NCBI GenBank assembly: GCA_965205865.1
Contig: CBDBHR010000030.1
Coordinates: forward strand, 1,056,001 to 1,120,000
Length of the DNA stretch: 64,000 nucleotides
Direction of reading: 5' to 3'
Origin: a bacterium
Lineage (GTDB): Bacteria > SAR324 > NAC60-12
In this document: positions 57,411 to 64,000 of the stretch, in pieces
Layout of the letters: each line of letters begins with the position of its first letter
Numbering within the stretch: the first letter of the stretch is position 1
Made by a program: the position numbers and the translations under genes
Notes under the pieces: generated by a model
Seen by the model: the letters and a program-made list of their open reading frames with translations, nothing else
Told to the model about the DNA's origin: nothing
The model's database searches: none

Positions 57411-58290
57411 GATGAAGGGGCCAAAAAGCTTTTGGAGGAGGCGGGCTATCCCAATGGATTCAAGACCATCTTGTACCTCTGGGTTGGGACGGATTTAAAC
57501 TATCCCGAAATAGCTGCCGAATACTGGAAGGCTATTGGCGTTGATGCGGAGTTTAGAATCAATGACCGACCTACTATGATGACTCTGGTAACCGAACGGA
57601 CTTGGGAAGGTATGCAAGGTACGGTGGGTGGCTGGAATAGGGATGCTACTTGGTCAATACGCTGGCGGGGTCACTCGAGCTCCATGTGGAACCTCTCCGG
57701 GATCAAGGACCCTGAGTTGGACGCTCTCATTGAAGCGGCCGAAGCCGCGACCACCCTTGAGGAACAGATGAAGCACGCCAGGCAAGCCGATATGGTCCTG
57801 ATCGAACAGCAGGGGTATGTCTGGGGGCCTCACGCTGCCAAGTTCAACGTGGCCCAGCCGTGGGTCAAAGGGTATAACGGGGAAGTCCAGCTGGGCAGCA
57901 TGGATCGTCTGGTCATCTTCTCCCGCCTCTGGATTGACCAAACGCTGAAGAAAGAGATGGGGTTTTAGACTCCTCTTCTCAACGGACCCGCTCCCTCCCT
58001 CCCTCCGGTCCAGCGGGTGGGAGGGAAACAGTCATTCTTATCCCAATGTGCGCCTTTGCAGCTCCAATGTCGACGACCCGTTTTATACAGCCAAGTTTGA
58101 AGCCGCCGAAACCGCTGCCACTCTTGAGGAGCAGTACCGGTTAGTTCGGGAGTTGAATCAGTATGGGATTGAGAAGTTCTGGTCGATATACACTCCTGGC
58201 GCTCCACAGTATACCGCGGTCCAACCGTGGATCATCGGCTTTAACGGTGAAAGCTGGATGGGAAACGGTCAAATAATGTCCATCTTTACC
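57411..58290 (+). pseudogene. Two C-terminal fragments of peptide ABC substrate-binding proteins
   Basis: EGAKKLLEEAGYPNGF...QPWVKGYNGE...RLWID, then a second fragment DPFYTAKFEAA...QPWIIGFNGE. Confidence 0.75.
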
Positions 58291-59241
58291 CACCCTGTTT
58301 ATCTTGAGCATCCTGGTCTTCCTCTCGGTGCGCTTCATCCCCGGCGACGTCGTAGACGTCATAGAGGGCAGGATGGAATACTCCATTGCGGGTGTGGACC
58401 GTGAAGCCGTCGAGCGTAGGCTGGGACTGGACGTGCCCGTCTACGTGCAGTATGGACGGTGGCTCGGAGGGATTTTCCTGCAGGGGAGCCTCGGGGAATC
58501 ACTGATGGGTCAAGAGGTGGTGGAGGAGAGGATAATCGAGAGACTGCCGGTTACCATTGAGCTCGGTGTCCTGGCAATCGCCATCGGGATCCTCATCGCC
58601 CTTCAGGTGGGCGTCTACTCGGCGATTCGCCAGGATACGGCTGCCGATTACGTGGGGTGATCCGTTGCCATCATCGGCTTGTCCACGCCGAACTTCTGGC
58701 TGGGAATCATGGTCATGATCTACCCGGCATCTGGTGGGGGTGGTCGCCACCGCTGGAGCTGGTCTCTTTCGCGGAAGACCCGCTGGGGAATCTGGCGGTG
58801 TTTTTCATCCCCAGCCTGATTCTGGGGACCTACCTCTCGGCAACCACCATGCGTCTGACCCGCGCGATGATGCTGGAGGTCTTAAGGCAGGACTATATCC
58901 GCACCGCCTGGTCCAAGGGTCTGAAGGAGCGGGTGGTTATTGTCCGACACGCGATCAAGAATGCCCACATTCCGATAGTGACGCGTTCAGCTGGGCTTAT
59001 TGGCCGCGCTGCGGCCGCCCAGCCTCTCTGCGGCATGCAGTTGCCGATCGTGGTGGTGGGCGCCGTGATCATGGAGAACATCTTCAACCTGCCGGGGCTC
59101 GGGCGTCTCTTGCTGAGTGCCCTCAATGACCGAGACTACCCATGGTCTCCGGGGTCAACCTCTTTTTCGCCAGCGGGGTGGTGCTGCTCAATCTCCTCAT
59201 CGACCTGATTTATGCCTTCTTAGACCCCAGAGTGCGGTATG
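58286..59241 (+). pseudogene. Peptide ABC permease DppB/OppB, broken
   Basis: RFIPGDVV, LGLDVPVYVQY and RQDYIRTAWSKGL, with stops, frameshifts and an insertion near 58985-59035. Confidence 0.85.
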
Positions 59242-59251
59242 AATAGTCGTT

Positions 59252-60171
59252 ATGCTTCCGGTAAATATAGCTTTGAGATTCGTCTGTCAGAAGAAGTCCC
59301 TGGGGACGGCCTGCGGGATGATCGTCTTGCTCTTGATTCTGGTGGCGATCTTTGCCGATGTGCTGGCTCCCTATGGCTATACGGAAATGCACCTGAGAGA
59401 CCGGCTGCAGGGTGCATCAGCCCGGTATCTGCTCGGTACCGACCAGTTGGGGCGAAACTTCTTGAGCCGCCTGATCTACGGGGCTCGTCTTTCGTTAATT
59501 GTCGGTTTGGCCGCAACCACGCTCAATGTTCTCGTCGCGCTCCTGATCGGCCGCACGTCCGGATTCCTTGGGGGAAAGTGGACCTGGCGGTGCAGCGCTT
59601 TGTGGATGCCTGCATGGCTTTCCCGGGACTGCTGATCTTGTTAACTGTCATGTCCATCGTGGGCTAAGGTCTCCTCCAGATCATTGTGGTCCCGGGCGTA
59701 TCCGGAGGCATCGGTGGCTCCCGAGTCGTCCGCGGCGCCGTGATCGGTGTCAAAGAGAATGACTATTTTCTGGCAGCCCAGGCCGTGGGCACTCCGACCA
59801 GCCGAATCCTGATCCGCCATGTGCTGCCCAATATCATGGCGCCGATCATCATCATCTTCAGCATCAACATCGGAGGCGTCATCATTGCCGAGGCCTCGTT
59901 GAGCTTCCTCGGATTCGGACTGCCCATCAAGATTCCCAGTTGGGGAGGGATGCTCAGCCGGGAAGGGCTTCAGTACATGGAGATGGCCCCACGGCTGGCG
60001 CTCTGGCCTGGCCTCTGCCTGACGATTGTCGTTTACGCTCTCAACATGTTCGGGGACGCCATGCGGGATCTGCTCGATCCGAGGCTGCGAGGCGGTGAGG
60101 GCAGTTACGGCATTGCGGGGAAACCCAAACGAGGCCTCCTGGCCCGACTGCTCTCCCCTTTCGACCGGTAA
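59252..60171 (+). pseudogene. Peptide ABC permease DppC/OppC, broken
   Basis: LGTDQLGR and HVLPNIMAP...EASLSFLGFG...GDAMRDLLDPR; frameshift at ~59570 and TAA at 59665. Confidence 0.85.
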
Positions 60172-60211
60172 ATGCGCAATCTGAAATAATTTTTGTGAAT
60201 GGAGAATAACC

Positions 60212-60987
60212 TCAAGCAACGGCTTCGACCGCCCTCACCTCAGGGCCGACAAAGACAATCACATAGGCTTTCAGGTTGTCCAACCGTTGCAAAGCCTCAC
60301 TTTGTAAATAGCCCTGTAACTGAATCGTGGCTGCTTGGACGGTGGTTTCCAATTGAGCGCTTTCGCTTTTTTTGAGATACTTCAACTCAAAGGCAAACTG
60401 GTAGTTGGGGAAATAGGGAGGACGGTGAAGAAAGAGGACATCGACATACTTCTGTTCAGTCTCTTGTTCACTCCGGATGTAATAGAGATTGGCCAGACTG
60501 GCAAAGGCAACAAACAAGACTTTGACATATTTTTCGTCGAATTGGATAAAGTAAAGAATTCTTTAAGCGCATCAGACGGATTCTCATAACCTGTGTAATC
60601 TTGACTCATCCCATCATAGCGCTTTTCAAAATCTTTGACTCCTATCAGTACATTTTGCTGAAAACCGCTTTGGGTCGTTTCCGGAGTACTGGTCCCGATG
60701 CGGCTGAAATCGAATTTGAGGACATGATAACTATGAGCACGTGAAGTGGGGTGCGCTCCAATATAGTACTTCCCAAAAAGAGAATCAAACTGTTCCTGGT
60801 GCTCCAGGCCATAGTAATAGCGGAGCATGGAGACAAACAACGTCTTGCCAAAACGCCGGGGACGCAGAAAGAAAATGTAGGGCGCCGGTTCGTTTTCCAA
60901 TTGTTCAATATAGCGCGTCTTATCCACATAAAAATACCCATCTTCAATGAGACGGGCAAAGTTGCTGATGCCATAGGGAAGTTTCAT
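60212..60987 (-). pseudogene. AAA-ATPase-like + PD-(D/E)XK nuclease (PDDEXK_9 type) with large internal deletion
   Basis: LPYGISNF...YVDKT...RPRRFGKTL joined out of frame to YVDV...FELKY. Confidence 0.85.
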
Positions 60988-61528
60988 CCGATTTCTCCAA
61001 AAAGCGCCTGAATATCTCCCAGTTTATCACTGTTTGCCTTTTCTCACAATCATACCCCTGTGAAATGAGTAATGCTCAATTTGATTTTTTGACTGTTCCG
61101 GTAATTTGATTACAAATGGGTGATATTGTCCTCACACCGCTTTCTTTGCTTCCACTTCCATTCTCACCATGGCGACATGGACTTTCCCTTCAGCATCTAT
61201 TGGAATCCTTTCAATATATTTAGCAGAGATGGATTCAATAATCTGATTTTATCTTTTTTTCGTGCTGCTTGCCCTCCCTCCTCAGACCCTTGAGGTCCCC
61301 TCCAGGCACCGGAAATCCTGCCCAAAACAAGAGAGTGTCGCAGCGCCATTTAATGAAATCACGGTTCTGTCCTTATGGCGTCAAGGCAACTCGCATCAAA
61401 AACAATGACATTAAACAGGTTGAAAAGTTGATGAGTGCGATTTTTTTTGCGAATCCCACATTTATTTTACACCAGGGGCTTGACATTGCGTTGTTGTTTG
61501 CTACAACCATACCAATACTAAGTTGTTT

Positions 61529-63104
61529 GTAACTATTTAGGTTTCTTTAGAGCCCCCCTTCGATTTAAGCACGGAATTTGCATAGCATAAAATTCAGGAT
61601 TTAGGATTTTATGCTCTCGAAATTTCAAAAGTATATTAATTCCATTTCATCGACTTCCCTCCTTGAGGCTCTTCAAGAAGCCTGTCAACTCTTTGAAGAA
61701 GAACGGGACCAATGGAAGAAAGAGCGATTAAAACTCCTCGAACGTCTCGAAATAGAAAATAAGCGTATTGAAGCTCTCGAAACAGAAAATAAGCAACTTC
61801 TGGATCAGCTGGCTCTCAACAGCCAAAACTCAAGTAAACCTCCTTCCACCGATCAAAGTCGAAAGAACAAAAGCTTACGTAAAAGCAGGGGTCGCTCTCG
61901 CGGAGGTCAACCCGGTCATCAAGGCCATCATTTGGCTTTCAGTGAATCACCAGATCATGTGGAGCCTCATTTTGTCAACACCTGTGAAACCTGTGGAGAA
62001 GATTTATCCAAGGTGGCGGTTGAGGCCACGCATAAACGTCAGGTGTTCGATCTCCCCTCTCTGCAATTAGAGGTTACTGAACACCAGGTGGAACAAAAAA
62101 TTTGTCCCTGCTGCCGGCATCTGAATCACTCGAGCTTTCCAGCAGGGATAGAGGCGCCCACTCAATATGGTCCCCGGATCAAAGGCTTAGCGGTTTATCT
62201 CAATCAATATCAGTTTCTGCCCTTTGATCGATGCCAGCAATTCTTTGAGGATCTGTTCGGCCAGCCGCTCAATGCGGCCACGATTTATGCCAGCCTCCGG
62301 CAAGCCGCCCATAGGCTTTATCCCTTCCAACAACAAGTGGCTGAAGCTCTGATTCAAGCGGAGGTGGTTCATTTTGATGAAACCTCCCTCTTTGAAAACA
62401 AACAACGTCGCTGGCTTCATTCAGCCTCTACCGAAGAGCTGACCTTTTATTTTATCCACGACAAACGGGGTCAAGCCGGAATGGATGCTGCCGGTATCCT
62501 GCCTCAGTTTGAAAAGACAGCCATTCATGATCACTGGGAGAGCTACCAGCATTATGAGTGTGATCATGGCTTTTGCAATGCGCATCATTTACGTGAACTC
62601 ACTCGGGCCTATCAACAAGAAAAGGCCTTGTGGGCTCAGGAGATGAGCGACTTACTGGTAGAGATCAAAGAGCAAGTAGACCAAGCCAAGTTCAAAGAAC
62701 AATCTGCTTTGAGTCCAATCCAACTCGATCACTTCCGGCAACGCTATCGTGATATCACCCAAGAAGCCCTTAAGCTCTATCCTCCCCCTCCTCAAACAAA
62801 GAAACGAGGACGCCCCAAACAGAGCAAAGCCAAAAATTTACTCGATCGCTTGATCCTCTATGAAAAGGAAACCTTGTTATTCATGGATGACTTCCGGGTT
62901 CCTTTTGACAACAACCAAGCCGAGCGAGATGTGCGCATGGTTAAACTGAAACAAAAAATCTCCGGCGGCTTTCGAACGGCTGAAGGATCTCAGGCTTTTT
63001 GTATCATCCGGGGAGCCATTTCCACTACCAGAAAACAGGGGAAATCCATCCTCGAGTTGCTCACTCAGGCTTTGCATCCTTCACATGCTCCTCCTTGTTA
63101 CTGA
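61529..63104 (+). mobile_element. IS66-family element (single-ORF type), transposase 61611-63104
   Basis: NSQNSSKPPS, GGQPGHQG, Zn finger, DET, CNAHHLREL and DNNQAERDVR. Left end GTAACTATTTAG at 61529; right IR only weakly seen (GTTAC 63097-63101). Confidence 0.93.
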
Positions 63105-63137
63105 AACTCTCCTTTTTTTAAACGTTCCGCCCCCTGC

Positions 63138-63353
63138 GTGGCCAAAAGTATTCATAGCAAACATAGCATCGTCAATGCGATTTTGTATGTCGTGAAAACA
63201 AGTTGTCAGTGGAGCATGCTTGCCCATGATTTACCTCCCTGGCAAAGCGTTTACGATCATTATCGCCGTTGGAAAAAACGATGGATTGTGGAGCGAACAT
63301 TCGCTTTTTGGCTCATGCCGAAGATGGACCGCAATATATCTTTTTATAGCTGA
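63138..63353 (+). mobile_element. IS5-family transposase internal-deletion remnant
   Basis: IVNAILYVVKTSCQWSML.HDLPPWQSVY fused directly to RWIVERTF. Confidence 0.8.
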
Positions 63354-63666
63354 CCTCCATTGTTGCGCAATTCTCCTGATCCAAACTTGCTATAGGCTTT
63401 GCGCCGCGTAGTAGTGCTGAAATCATGCCTTGTTGTTTCAGGGAAGGAGAGGATTTCCGCTCGTTTGATTCAAAATTAGCTGTGGGAGGGTTCCCGCTTG
63501 ATCGATTGAACAATACCCCGGGAGGATGTGAAAACGATGGATCCTTCCCGGGAATCTTTTTTCAATGTTATTGAACTGAACGGCTTCTGACTGTCCCCGG
63601 ATTTGAGCAGATTTATTGATTTTTTATTTTTTTTTGCGAATCCCGCATTTATTTTATGTCAGGGGG

Positions 63667-63694
63667 TTGACATTGTGTTGTTTTGTGTTATAAT
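63667..63694 (+). promoter_or_regulatory. Consensus sigma70 promoter
   Basis: TTGACA-16nt-TATAAT with extended -10 TG. Homologous copies at 63936-63961 (14-nt spacer) and 61480-61507 (TACAAC). Confidence 0.75.
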
Positions 63695-63700
63695 CCTGCC

Positions 63701-63832
63701 ATCGCTGAGTTGCTTTGGTGAAAGAGGGTTCCCGATCGATTGAACAAAATCTTGGGAGGGTTCCCGCCCGTTCGATTCAAAATAGGTGCGGGAGGAAGTG
63801 AAGTGATGGATCCTCTTCGGGAATCTTTTTTT
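63701..63832 (+). ncRNA. Putative ~130-nt small RNA (one unit of the array)
   Basis: Lies between a consensus promoter and a hairpin + T7 tract, has no ORF and contains two stem-loops. Confidence 0.5.
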
Positions 63833-64000
63833 ACCGATATTGAACTAAACGGCTTCTGACTGTTCCCGGATTTGAGCAGATTTATTGTTTTTTTAAATTT
63901 TTTTGCGAATCCCGAATTTATTTTACATCAGGGGGTTGACATTACTTTATTGTGTTATAATCACGTCTTCGTTAAGTTGTGTTTATGAAAGAAGAGGGTT

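Follow-up and report, generated by a model that had tools for sequence, protein, structure and literature searches.

Terminator/antiterminator leaders, i.e. attenuators and riboswitch expression platforms, contain mutually exclusive C-rich/G-rich pairings, with a hairpin directly before a U-run in the 5' leader. The NsiR1 array, which Ionescu is said to have described in 2010 (as cited in PMC4734099), reportedly consists of tandem direct repeats at a single locus, each with a promoter and a terminator and yielding a short RNA. BOX elements of Streptococcus pneumoniae are composed of boxA, a variable number of boxB and boxC. In the summary given by Delihas (2011, PMC3184786), BOX elements are transcribed, can modulate neighbour genes and are regarded as similar to miniature inverted-repeat transposable elements (MITEs), mobilized in trans. 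The same summary covers the IR-A/IR-B repeats of Borrelia and REP2 of Neisseria, the contact-regulated element upstream of pilC1, crgA and other genes; REP2 is given there as a repeat of 120-180 bp that is dispersed between genes, lacks terminal inverted repeats and is present in 26 copies, the genes downstream of it being thereby co-regulated (PMC3184786). Correia elements of Neisseria appear there with outward promoters, and the title of the work concerned also proposes phase variation (Siddique 2011, as cited in PMC3184786). Here we analyse an array of short hairpin modules at the end of a 64 000-nucleotide (nt) stretch of DNA, 'the window' below, from a bacterium of the SAR324 lineage (assembly GCA_965205865.1, contig CBDBHR010000030.1; G000:C30:1056001-1120000 in our numbering, where G000 is the window's genome of 4.74 Mb). 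In our assessment there is about an even chance that the modules form the variable middle of a dispersed, genus-restricted cassette of promoter and 5' leader that is probably a leaky attenuator.

By description, the unit that contains the modules is similar to REP2 and the Borrelia repeats as summarized by Delihas: it is dispersed, has a predicted promoter, internal leader stem-loops and no convincing terminal inverted repeats, and stands immediately upstream of many genes. In comparison with the REP2 of that summary there are ~4 times more copies here (87 clusters with 151 matches versus 26), tandem arrays are formed, and the genes downstream are paralogues of one family rather than unrelated genes. 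Other differences from REP2 are the 36-nt stem-loop module, present one to four times per unit, the hairpin and U-run at the end, and the loss of the ATG in most gene-proximal copies; as for the ribosome-binding site and ATG inside REP2, the unit shows GGGAGG with an ATG 11 nt later in 28 of 33 internal copies and in five of 41 gene-proximal ones. Like BOX, the unit has constant ends enclosing tandem internal modules that vary in number, and a strong predicted RNA structure; unlike BOX, which has by definition no promoter of its own, it carries a near-consensus promoter, and no terminal inverted repeats were found. It shares with Correia elements the property of a dispersed repeat supplying promoters to neighbour genes, but those are true MITEs with inverted ends and target duplications from which downstream sequence is transcribed, while here the transcribed leader itself is conserved. 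Tandem direct repeats with a promoter and a hairpin plus U-run in each are as in NsiR1, except that here dozens of loci carry arrays, whose last unit runs into a protein gene. In predicted folds, C-rich and G-rich segments compete for pairing before a U-run in the 5' leader, as in attenuators, although the terminator hairpin is unusually weak and no ligand- or protein-binding domain was identified. Unlike in attenuators, the outermost segments can pair too, so that a helix stands before the U-run in either fold. A literature search gave no account of this element, nor of repeats in sponge-associated SAR324.

The positions and stems of the modules, and their opposite order in two units, proved to be as the initial annotation had given them (Table 1); the Y'-X' pair follows the X-Y pair ~270 bases downstream. 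Given pairwise identities of 30/37 (X-X'), 28/36 (Y-Y'), 25/37 (X-Y) and 25/36 (X'-Y'), i.e. 68-81%, all four are copies of one module. A module of 33-38 nt is laid out as a UUCCC(G) stem arm, a conserved loop (GAUCGAUUGAACAAUA or GAUUCAAAAU) and (C)GGGAGG, and neighbouring modules abut as GGGAGG/GTTCCC. The loop is the most conserved part, with 140 Y-loop matches at ≤3 mismatches; in copies from G001, a closed single-contig sister genome of the same genus, it is mostly GAUGGAAC, with ATGGAACAAT the commonest form.

A hidden Markov model (HMM) of the module, run on G000, gave 190 matches, of which 145 were full length; 94 of these belonged to the long type (36-38 nt) and 51 to the short one (33 nt). 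The modules make up 135 runs (89 single, 40 double, three triple and three quadruple) standing between a constant leader and a constant 3' part. With lower-case y and upper-case Y kept apart, the commonest orders were y (45), Y (39) and X-Y (22). Two-module orders with X' were Y-X' (5) and y-X' (3), eight in total, and the rarer orders were Y-Y (4), X'-Y-Y-Y (2), X-Y-X' (1), y-Y-X' (1) and Y-Y-Y-Y (1). As the window's three-unit array recurs with 97-98% identity at two other places of C30, and as the single contig of G001 carries both main orders (loci L036 and L032), the exchanged order is not a misassembly. The proposal that the modules are interchangeable cassettes joined at GGGAGG holds as far as their number (one to four) and order vary and recombinants such as X-Y-X' exist. 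Still, the X found in X-Y units belongs to another subtype than the X' of Y-X' units; therefore, the 'swap' amounts to two unit lineages with occasional recombinants and not to free shuffling. Unequal recombination at the GGGAGG/GUUCCC joints would change module number and order in the explanation we prefer. Tandem Repeats Finder, applied to positions 58000-64000, reported two unrelated short arrays alone; the array units escaped it because those of ~270 bp have diverged too far and there are not enough 36-nt pairs.

Each module run sits within a ~270-bp unit made of a near-consensus extended -10 promoter, a 5'-terminal hairpin (P0), the modules and a weak hairpin followed by a U-tract. It is this context, together with the binding-protein genes downstream, that the initial annotation had missed, though the modules it described are real. 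The array has three units, the third extending past the window end. TTGACA and TGnTAnnAT boxes recur across the unit copies with the TGn extension conserved, in terms of consensus match only; in unit 1 the -35 region is replaced by the right end of a remnant similar to the insertion sequence (IS) IS5. The weak hairpin has the form GGATCC...GGGAATC followed by six or seven U, and a second C-rich/G-rich pair (GAUCCUCCC / CGGGAAUC) directly precedes the U-run. The sole terminator-like site called by the scan was the hairpin after unit 2 at 63860-63879, the equivalent of the link hairpin between units. Of the complete units, 90 in all, the inter-unit link comes next in 33, a conserved gene-proximal tail (AACGGGTTTTTCAGAGACCTGAATAGTTAC) in 41 and other sequence in 16; after the tail similarity stops sharply, with the 3' boundary at AGTTAC. 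In the locus extract L001 (1568-1595 = window 63667-63694) there are ~60 nt from the conserved tail of unit 3 to the ATG of the next gene, with no further promoter called there.

Promoter spacers could be parsed by a regular expression in 74 of 97 promoters and ranged from 12 to 30 nt; the G000 counts were 15 for 14 nt, 15 for 16 nt, six for 17 nt and nine for 20 nt. The spacers hold trinucleotide runs, (GTT)2-4 in G000 and (GTA/AGT)2-5 in G001 (63673-63688 and 63942-63955 in the window), which, judged by their sequence, could tune or switch individual promoters.

Comparison of folds was done on an alignment (A3) of 69 single-module units from G000 and G001 together. Two folds are possible because C-rich and G-rich segments are mutually complementary. 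The tandem fold, consisting of the module stem and the terminator hairpin, had 88.8% of alignment cells paired; the nested fold, in which the module 5' arm pairs with CGGGAAUC before the U-run and GGGAGGA pairs with UCCUCCC, had 91.7%, while slid partners gave 40-61% for either fold. P0 is common to both folds, as is a mini-stem of 4 bp within the Y loop. The GGGAGGA/UCCUCCC helix, paired in 83.7% of cells, competes with the module stem and with the terminator stem; in the nested helix GGGUUCCCG/CGGGAAUCU, which ends at the U-run, 95-98% of cells are paired. RNAalifold picked the nested fold, which was the more stable one in 68 of the 69 units (mean -20.3 versus -4.1 kcal/mol, ~16 apart). The clearest covariation was seen in P0 (pair 8-21: CG 39, UG 13, UA 8; pair 6-22: AU 39, GU 17, GC 2), and P0 with the module hairpins was paired in 88-97% of cells. 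Minimum free energy (MFE) was lower for the sense than for the antisense strand in all 69 units (means -32.7 and -23.0 kcal/mol), with a mean z of -3.4 for the sense strand against shuffles and many G-U pairs. The structure is thus an RNA-level, sense-strand property, and the hairpins described at first are one of at least two competing pairings.

Selection for the module hairpin itself, which the initial annotation had proposed, received slight support. In 28 distinct long modules 91.8% of stem cells were paired, against 56-67% with the 3' partner slid; on the other hand, no pair in this set was changed on both sides, and shuffles scored equally well. Likewise, the difference between X and X' (G-U versus G-C) is real and keeps pairing, but it is a one-sided change. 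The sequence GAGAGG, in 23 of the 69 single-module units, breaks the module stem and makes mismatches in both folds, and the nested alternative is the more stable. Pair 6 over the 94 long G000 modules (GU 51, GC 23, AU 19, AC 1) is suggestive of stem selection among copies that are not independent. By hand we also saw that the loop of the last module is complementary to the tail downstream of the U-run (7 bp for Y, 11/13 for X' with the ACCGAUAUUGAA tail); this suggestive complementarity is inseparable from haplotype linkage and is not claimed as pairing.

From this anatomy we infer the following course of events. The strong extended -10 promoter would start a transcript with P0 at its very 5' end. 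The transcript could take one fold as a row of hairpins, modules and weak terminator hairpin, or another, nested fold, with the first C-rich arm paired to the last G-rich arm just before the U-run; the cassette would then act as a leaky or conditional attenuator and a 5' stabilizer. The last unit of an array would drive the downstream binding-protein gene by read-through, while upstream units, with an extra hairpin and T-rich link at the end, would yield short RNAs, and the conserved loops might be the site read by a putative factor. Going further, one could imagine riboregulation of an undescribed kind across the genus, in which the fold flip gates read-through into ~45 operons for nutrient-binding proteins, the GAUCGAUUGAACAAUA loop is read by a single trans factor, be it protein or RNA, upstream units are decoy small RNAs titrating this factor, and spacer trinucleotide runs with module number set the gain of each locus; this extension we regard as a long shot.

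The gene association is as follows. The window's array is followed by a gene for a 613-aa family-5 ATP-binding cassette (ABC) substrate-binding protein (PF00496 match at C30:1120532-1121668), a family with 135 PF00496 matches in G000. Units, counted with an HMM built on single-module units, gave 151 matches in 87 clusters, often tandem; they are consistently oriented toward the downstream binding-protein gene, and a unit lies ≤1 kb upstream of 45 of 132 binding-protein open reading frames (ORFs), about a third. Within 500 nt downstream of the 87 clusters we found 65 ORFs, among them 39 paralogues of the window's protein with 27-56% identity; many of the remaining ORFs are transposase-like or short. 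Four RNA-library runs of two studies contain assembled contigs that extend across the U-runs and include portions of units 2 and 3 (e.g. X18 record 27, L001 1905-1999; X15 record 1, L001 1675-1778); stretches with scant or absent cover, and differences in depth between unit and gene, were left out of account.

Several observations speak against a promoter-leader cassette of this kind. The remaining 87 of the 132 binding-protein genes have no unit (four of these 87 carry the terminal CCnGGGAATCTTT motif), and for about half of the 87 clusters no binding-protein gene occurs within 500 nt. Many promoter spacers are far from 17 nt. The terminator hairpin region alone has a mean of -3.1 kcal/mol over the 69 units and was not called by the scan. 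The tandem covariation score was reached by two of 500 shuffles and the nested score by 98 of 500, figures that, by the warning of the covariation tool, related copies can yield in the absence of any structure; covariation thus does not decide which fold applies. Among the RNA-library contigs, one (X17 record 20, L001 1796-1934) also covers the promoter upstream of the predicted start; assembled contigs, for which DNA carry-over is possible, show presence in an RNA library and not starts, ends, strand or level.

Some features of the units would also fit if each unit were an independent gene for a trans-acting small RNA of ~110-150 nt, with loops as seeds or protein sites, arrays raising the dose, and proximity to binding-protein genes being secondary or reflecting the targets. 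Every unit has its own promoter and a hairpin plus U-run, internal units add a second hairpin and T-rich link before the next promoter, conservation is highest in the loops (140 Y-loop matches), folding is far better for the sense strand than for its antisense, and tandem small-RNA arrays are known (NsiR1). Yet 41 of the 90 complete units end in the gene-proximal tail, which has no second hairpin and stands directly before a gene start; the terminator hairpin is weak and bridged by RNA-library contigs; and no separate complementary targets were found by exact 10-12-base loop word counts, a comparison that is not discriminating. We consider the small-RNA explanation possible but unlikely.

The units are found in one genus, that of sponge-associated bacteria (a designation based on the label 'sponge metagenome' of two sequencing runs). 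A 401-base query had 82 matches in G000, and blastn detected the unit in two of 41 relatives (G000 and G001) and in none of the 39 other genomes of the family and order. The covariance model R1 matched G000 at 90 places and G001 at 70, whereas 43 further genomes, some of them incomplete, from 11 other genera of the family gave no match. A stem-anchored pattern run against one genome for each of 185,579 species, a scan that may leave out records of the window's own genome, hit 21 places in a single record whose coordinates match G001. By the covariance model, the unit is confined to one genus, with matches in two of 45 genomes of the taxonomic family.

Within the genus the turnover is fast. The leaders have a mean nucleotide identity of 83%, against the 27-56% of the downstream proteins to the window's protein. 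On a FastTree tree of 120 binding proteins (≥400 aa; 12 shorter ORFs dropped) unit presence needs 33 changes, with 34.3 +/- 2.2 expected from shuffled labels and 72 of 200 shuffles needing as few; since presence is so scattered, the unit is not inherited along with its gene. In G001 the orthologue of the window's protein (94% identical) shares sequence with G000 from ~10 bases before the ATG at L001 2106, and upstream of it there is one module-less variant in place of the three units: promoter, G-rich leader, a different hairpin, then ...CTTTCCCGGGAATCTTTTT. Module-less relatives were seen at L122:2960-3100 (minus strand) and, in G000, at C1 near 11027 (minus strand), C29:461390, C29:468456, C30:809040 and C28:605288, laid out as a promoter (some with (ATG/GAT)n spacer runs), a GGGGAAG-type leader, a different hairpin and CTTCCCCGGGAATCTTTT; from their sequence, they may be the ancestral form.

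Another explanation is that the units are a repeat that is selfish or was amplified passively, through duplication linked to IS elements, unequal crossing-over or gene conversion, and that their promoter-like and hairpin features have no selected role. The junction between the IS5-like remnant and the unit, CTATAGGCTTTGCGCC, has 26 copies in G000 with upstream similarity of varying length (mosaic flanks), and in G001 a similar remnant, with a different junction, precedes most first units; the sharp 3' boundary at AGTTAC, the random presence on the binding-protein tree, the restriction to one genus and the many spacers far from the optimum agree with passive spread. Against this, no convincing terminal inverted repeats were found around unit 3, the one unit examined (AT-rich 9-13-nt matches, 77-90%), and no target-site duplications were noticed at the unit boundaries displayed, which is not an exhaustive test. 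Moreover, the units are consistently oriented toward the binding-protein gene, and both species have kept the -10/TG box, the P0 pairing and the loops. We find it doubtful that the units are mere passengers.

A 17-codon frame begins 11 nt past the last GGGAGG in both window units, reads MDP(S/L)RESFF..IELNGF and ends at TGA; the two copies differ by three amino-acid-changing and two silent codon changes. If it were translated, the modules could be Shine-Dalgarno-sequestering hairpins controlling a leader ORF, in translation-coupled attenuation of the pyrBI type. With UUCCC pairing to GGGAG and the ATG kept in most internal units (28/33), the arrangement is suitable, but most gene-proximal units (36/41) and single-module units (58/69; AUC 44, AUU 14, AUG 11) have ATC or ATT instead, and the three nonsynonymous and two silent changes give no sign of protein-level constraint; such control seems very unlikely. 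We cannot explain the contrast between internal and gene-proximal units beyond the linkage of two 3' haplotypes. Still less probable, in our judgment, is a role of the conserved loop as a DNA operator (ATTGnnCAAT half-palindrome, with ATTGAAC again in the tail) bound by a factor downstream of the start. While ATTGAACAAT in the Y loop is 8/10 palindromic and ATTGAAC recurs ~75 nt downstream in the tail, the commonest G001 loop, ATGGAACAAT, breaks the palindrome, and the sense-over-antisense fold bias and reliance on G-U pairs point to RNA.

The initial annotation had raised the possibility that processing releases the modules as single RNAs of ~36 nt, or that they mimic tRNA (its T-arm). The T-loop-like GTTCGATTC is indeed present in X' and fits the consensus GTTCRANNC, for which the chance expectation at the genome-wide rate is 0.045 per 345 nt on one strand. 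However, the motif occurs in 11 of the 190 modules, all of them X' (11/15 X', 0/25 X and 0/145 Y/y), and its flanks (GCCC / AAAA) cannot form a T-stem, so that no 5-bp stem closes the loop. ARAGORN found no tRNA or tmRNA gene at 63000-64000; a search of 63100-64000 against Rfam 15 gave six matches with E of 3.4-9.9, all far under the gathering score, and for L001 1300-2100 Rfam gave none with E ≤1 and noise only up to 10. The T-arm mimic was rejected, and we attach hardly any credence to the proposal as a whole.

Table 1. Features of the window in the region of the module array (window positions unless a contig is named)
Feature	Positions	Strand	Description	Basis
Module X	63455-63487	+	Stem TTCCGC/GTGGGA	
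Module Y	63491-63523	+	Stem TTCCCG/CCGGGA	
Module Y'	63726-63759 (63729-63757 by stem ends)	+	Short type, GGGAGG end	Sequence, folds, module order table
Module X'	63760-63795 (63761-63793 by stem ends)	+	Stem TCCCGC/GCGGGA, GGGAGG end	Sequence, folds, module order table
Unit 1, transcribed part (predicted)	63413-63562	+	X-Y type	Folds; X-Y order seen 22 times; covariance-model match C30:1119424-1119562
Unit 1, -10 region		+	TGcTGAAAT extended -10-like box, then leader GGGAAGGAGAGG	Sequence
Unit 1, weak hairpin	63539-63556	+	GGATCCTTCCCGGGAATC; U-run 63557-63562	Sequence, folds
17-codon ORF, unit 1	63537-63590	+	MDPSRESFFNVIELNGF, then stop; begins 11 nt past last GGGAGG, crosses weak hairpin and U-run	
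Inter-unit link	63591-63666	+	Second weak hairpin CTGTCCCCGGATTTGAGCAG, T-rich tract, GCGAATCCCGC box upstream of next promoter	
Unit 2, predicted promoter	63667-63694	+	TTGACA, 16 nt, TGtTATAAT	12/12 sigma-70 consensus plus TG extension
Unit 2, 5'-terminal hairpin P0	63700-63720	+	CATCGCT...GGTG	Covariation in unit family
Unit 2, weak hairpin and U7	63805-63832	+	GATGGATCCTCTTCGGGAATC	Folds; not called terminator-like by scan
17-codon ORF, unit 2	ATG 63806, ends 63859	+	Second copy of the frame	Sequence
Unit 3, start	63936-64000, continues to C30:1120090	+	Single short Y, terminal type; TTGACA, 14 nt, TGtTATAAT, P0	L001 1837-2052, downstream ORF from 2052
IS66-family transposase ORF, 3' part	62000-63104	+	Stop 63102-63104; outside unit	Sequence; equal ORF fragment translated at a paralogous locus; family from translated motifs read by eye
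IS5-like remnant	63130-63412	+	Fused N- and C-terminal transposase pieces	Translation; preceded by IS66-type gene

Some further observations concern the surroundings of the units. The G-rich arm before the U-run of unit 2 (L001:1717-1726; window 63816-63825) matches the complement of the GAATCCCGAA box that precedes the next promoter (L001:1808-1817; window 63907-63916) to 90%; therefore, a read-through transcript would offer one more partner for pairing. Many binding-protein genes have more repeated hairpin-like segments, e.g. GCAGACGTCGTGTCTGC, in the stretch from the unit tail to their signal-peptide region (G000:C25:258940-259140 and C29:532200-532700, minus strand). In long ORF calls such segments read as GLTVADVVSAAK..., and by their sequence they may represent another repeat family or an N-terminal extension that the proteins share. 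A single CsrA gene (L071, G000:C29:321790-321948) lies ~1.5 kb from the best-scoring PF00496 match (C29:323404-324450). The idea that the units serve as a sponge for CsrA was dropped: one CsrA gene is present, but the GGA motifs are within stems in both folds.

This lineage devotes an unusual share of its genome to family-5 ABC binding proteins, a third of which stand behind one fast-turning-over promoter-leader cassette. With variable hairpin number, competing pairings and variable promoter spacing, the cassette is a compact natural system for work on multi-state RNA leaders; in addition, repeats that carry a promoter form a small class, with members in Neisseria and Borrelia, of which the cassette is a clear further example. 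If it has no function, it would still be a useful marker of recombination and IS-driven genome flux in the genus. A functional cassette would mean that dozens of uptake genes, diverged and in part horizontally acquired, were wired into one circuit by copying a regulatory module, and not by evolving each promoter.

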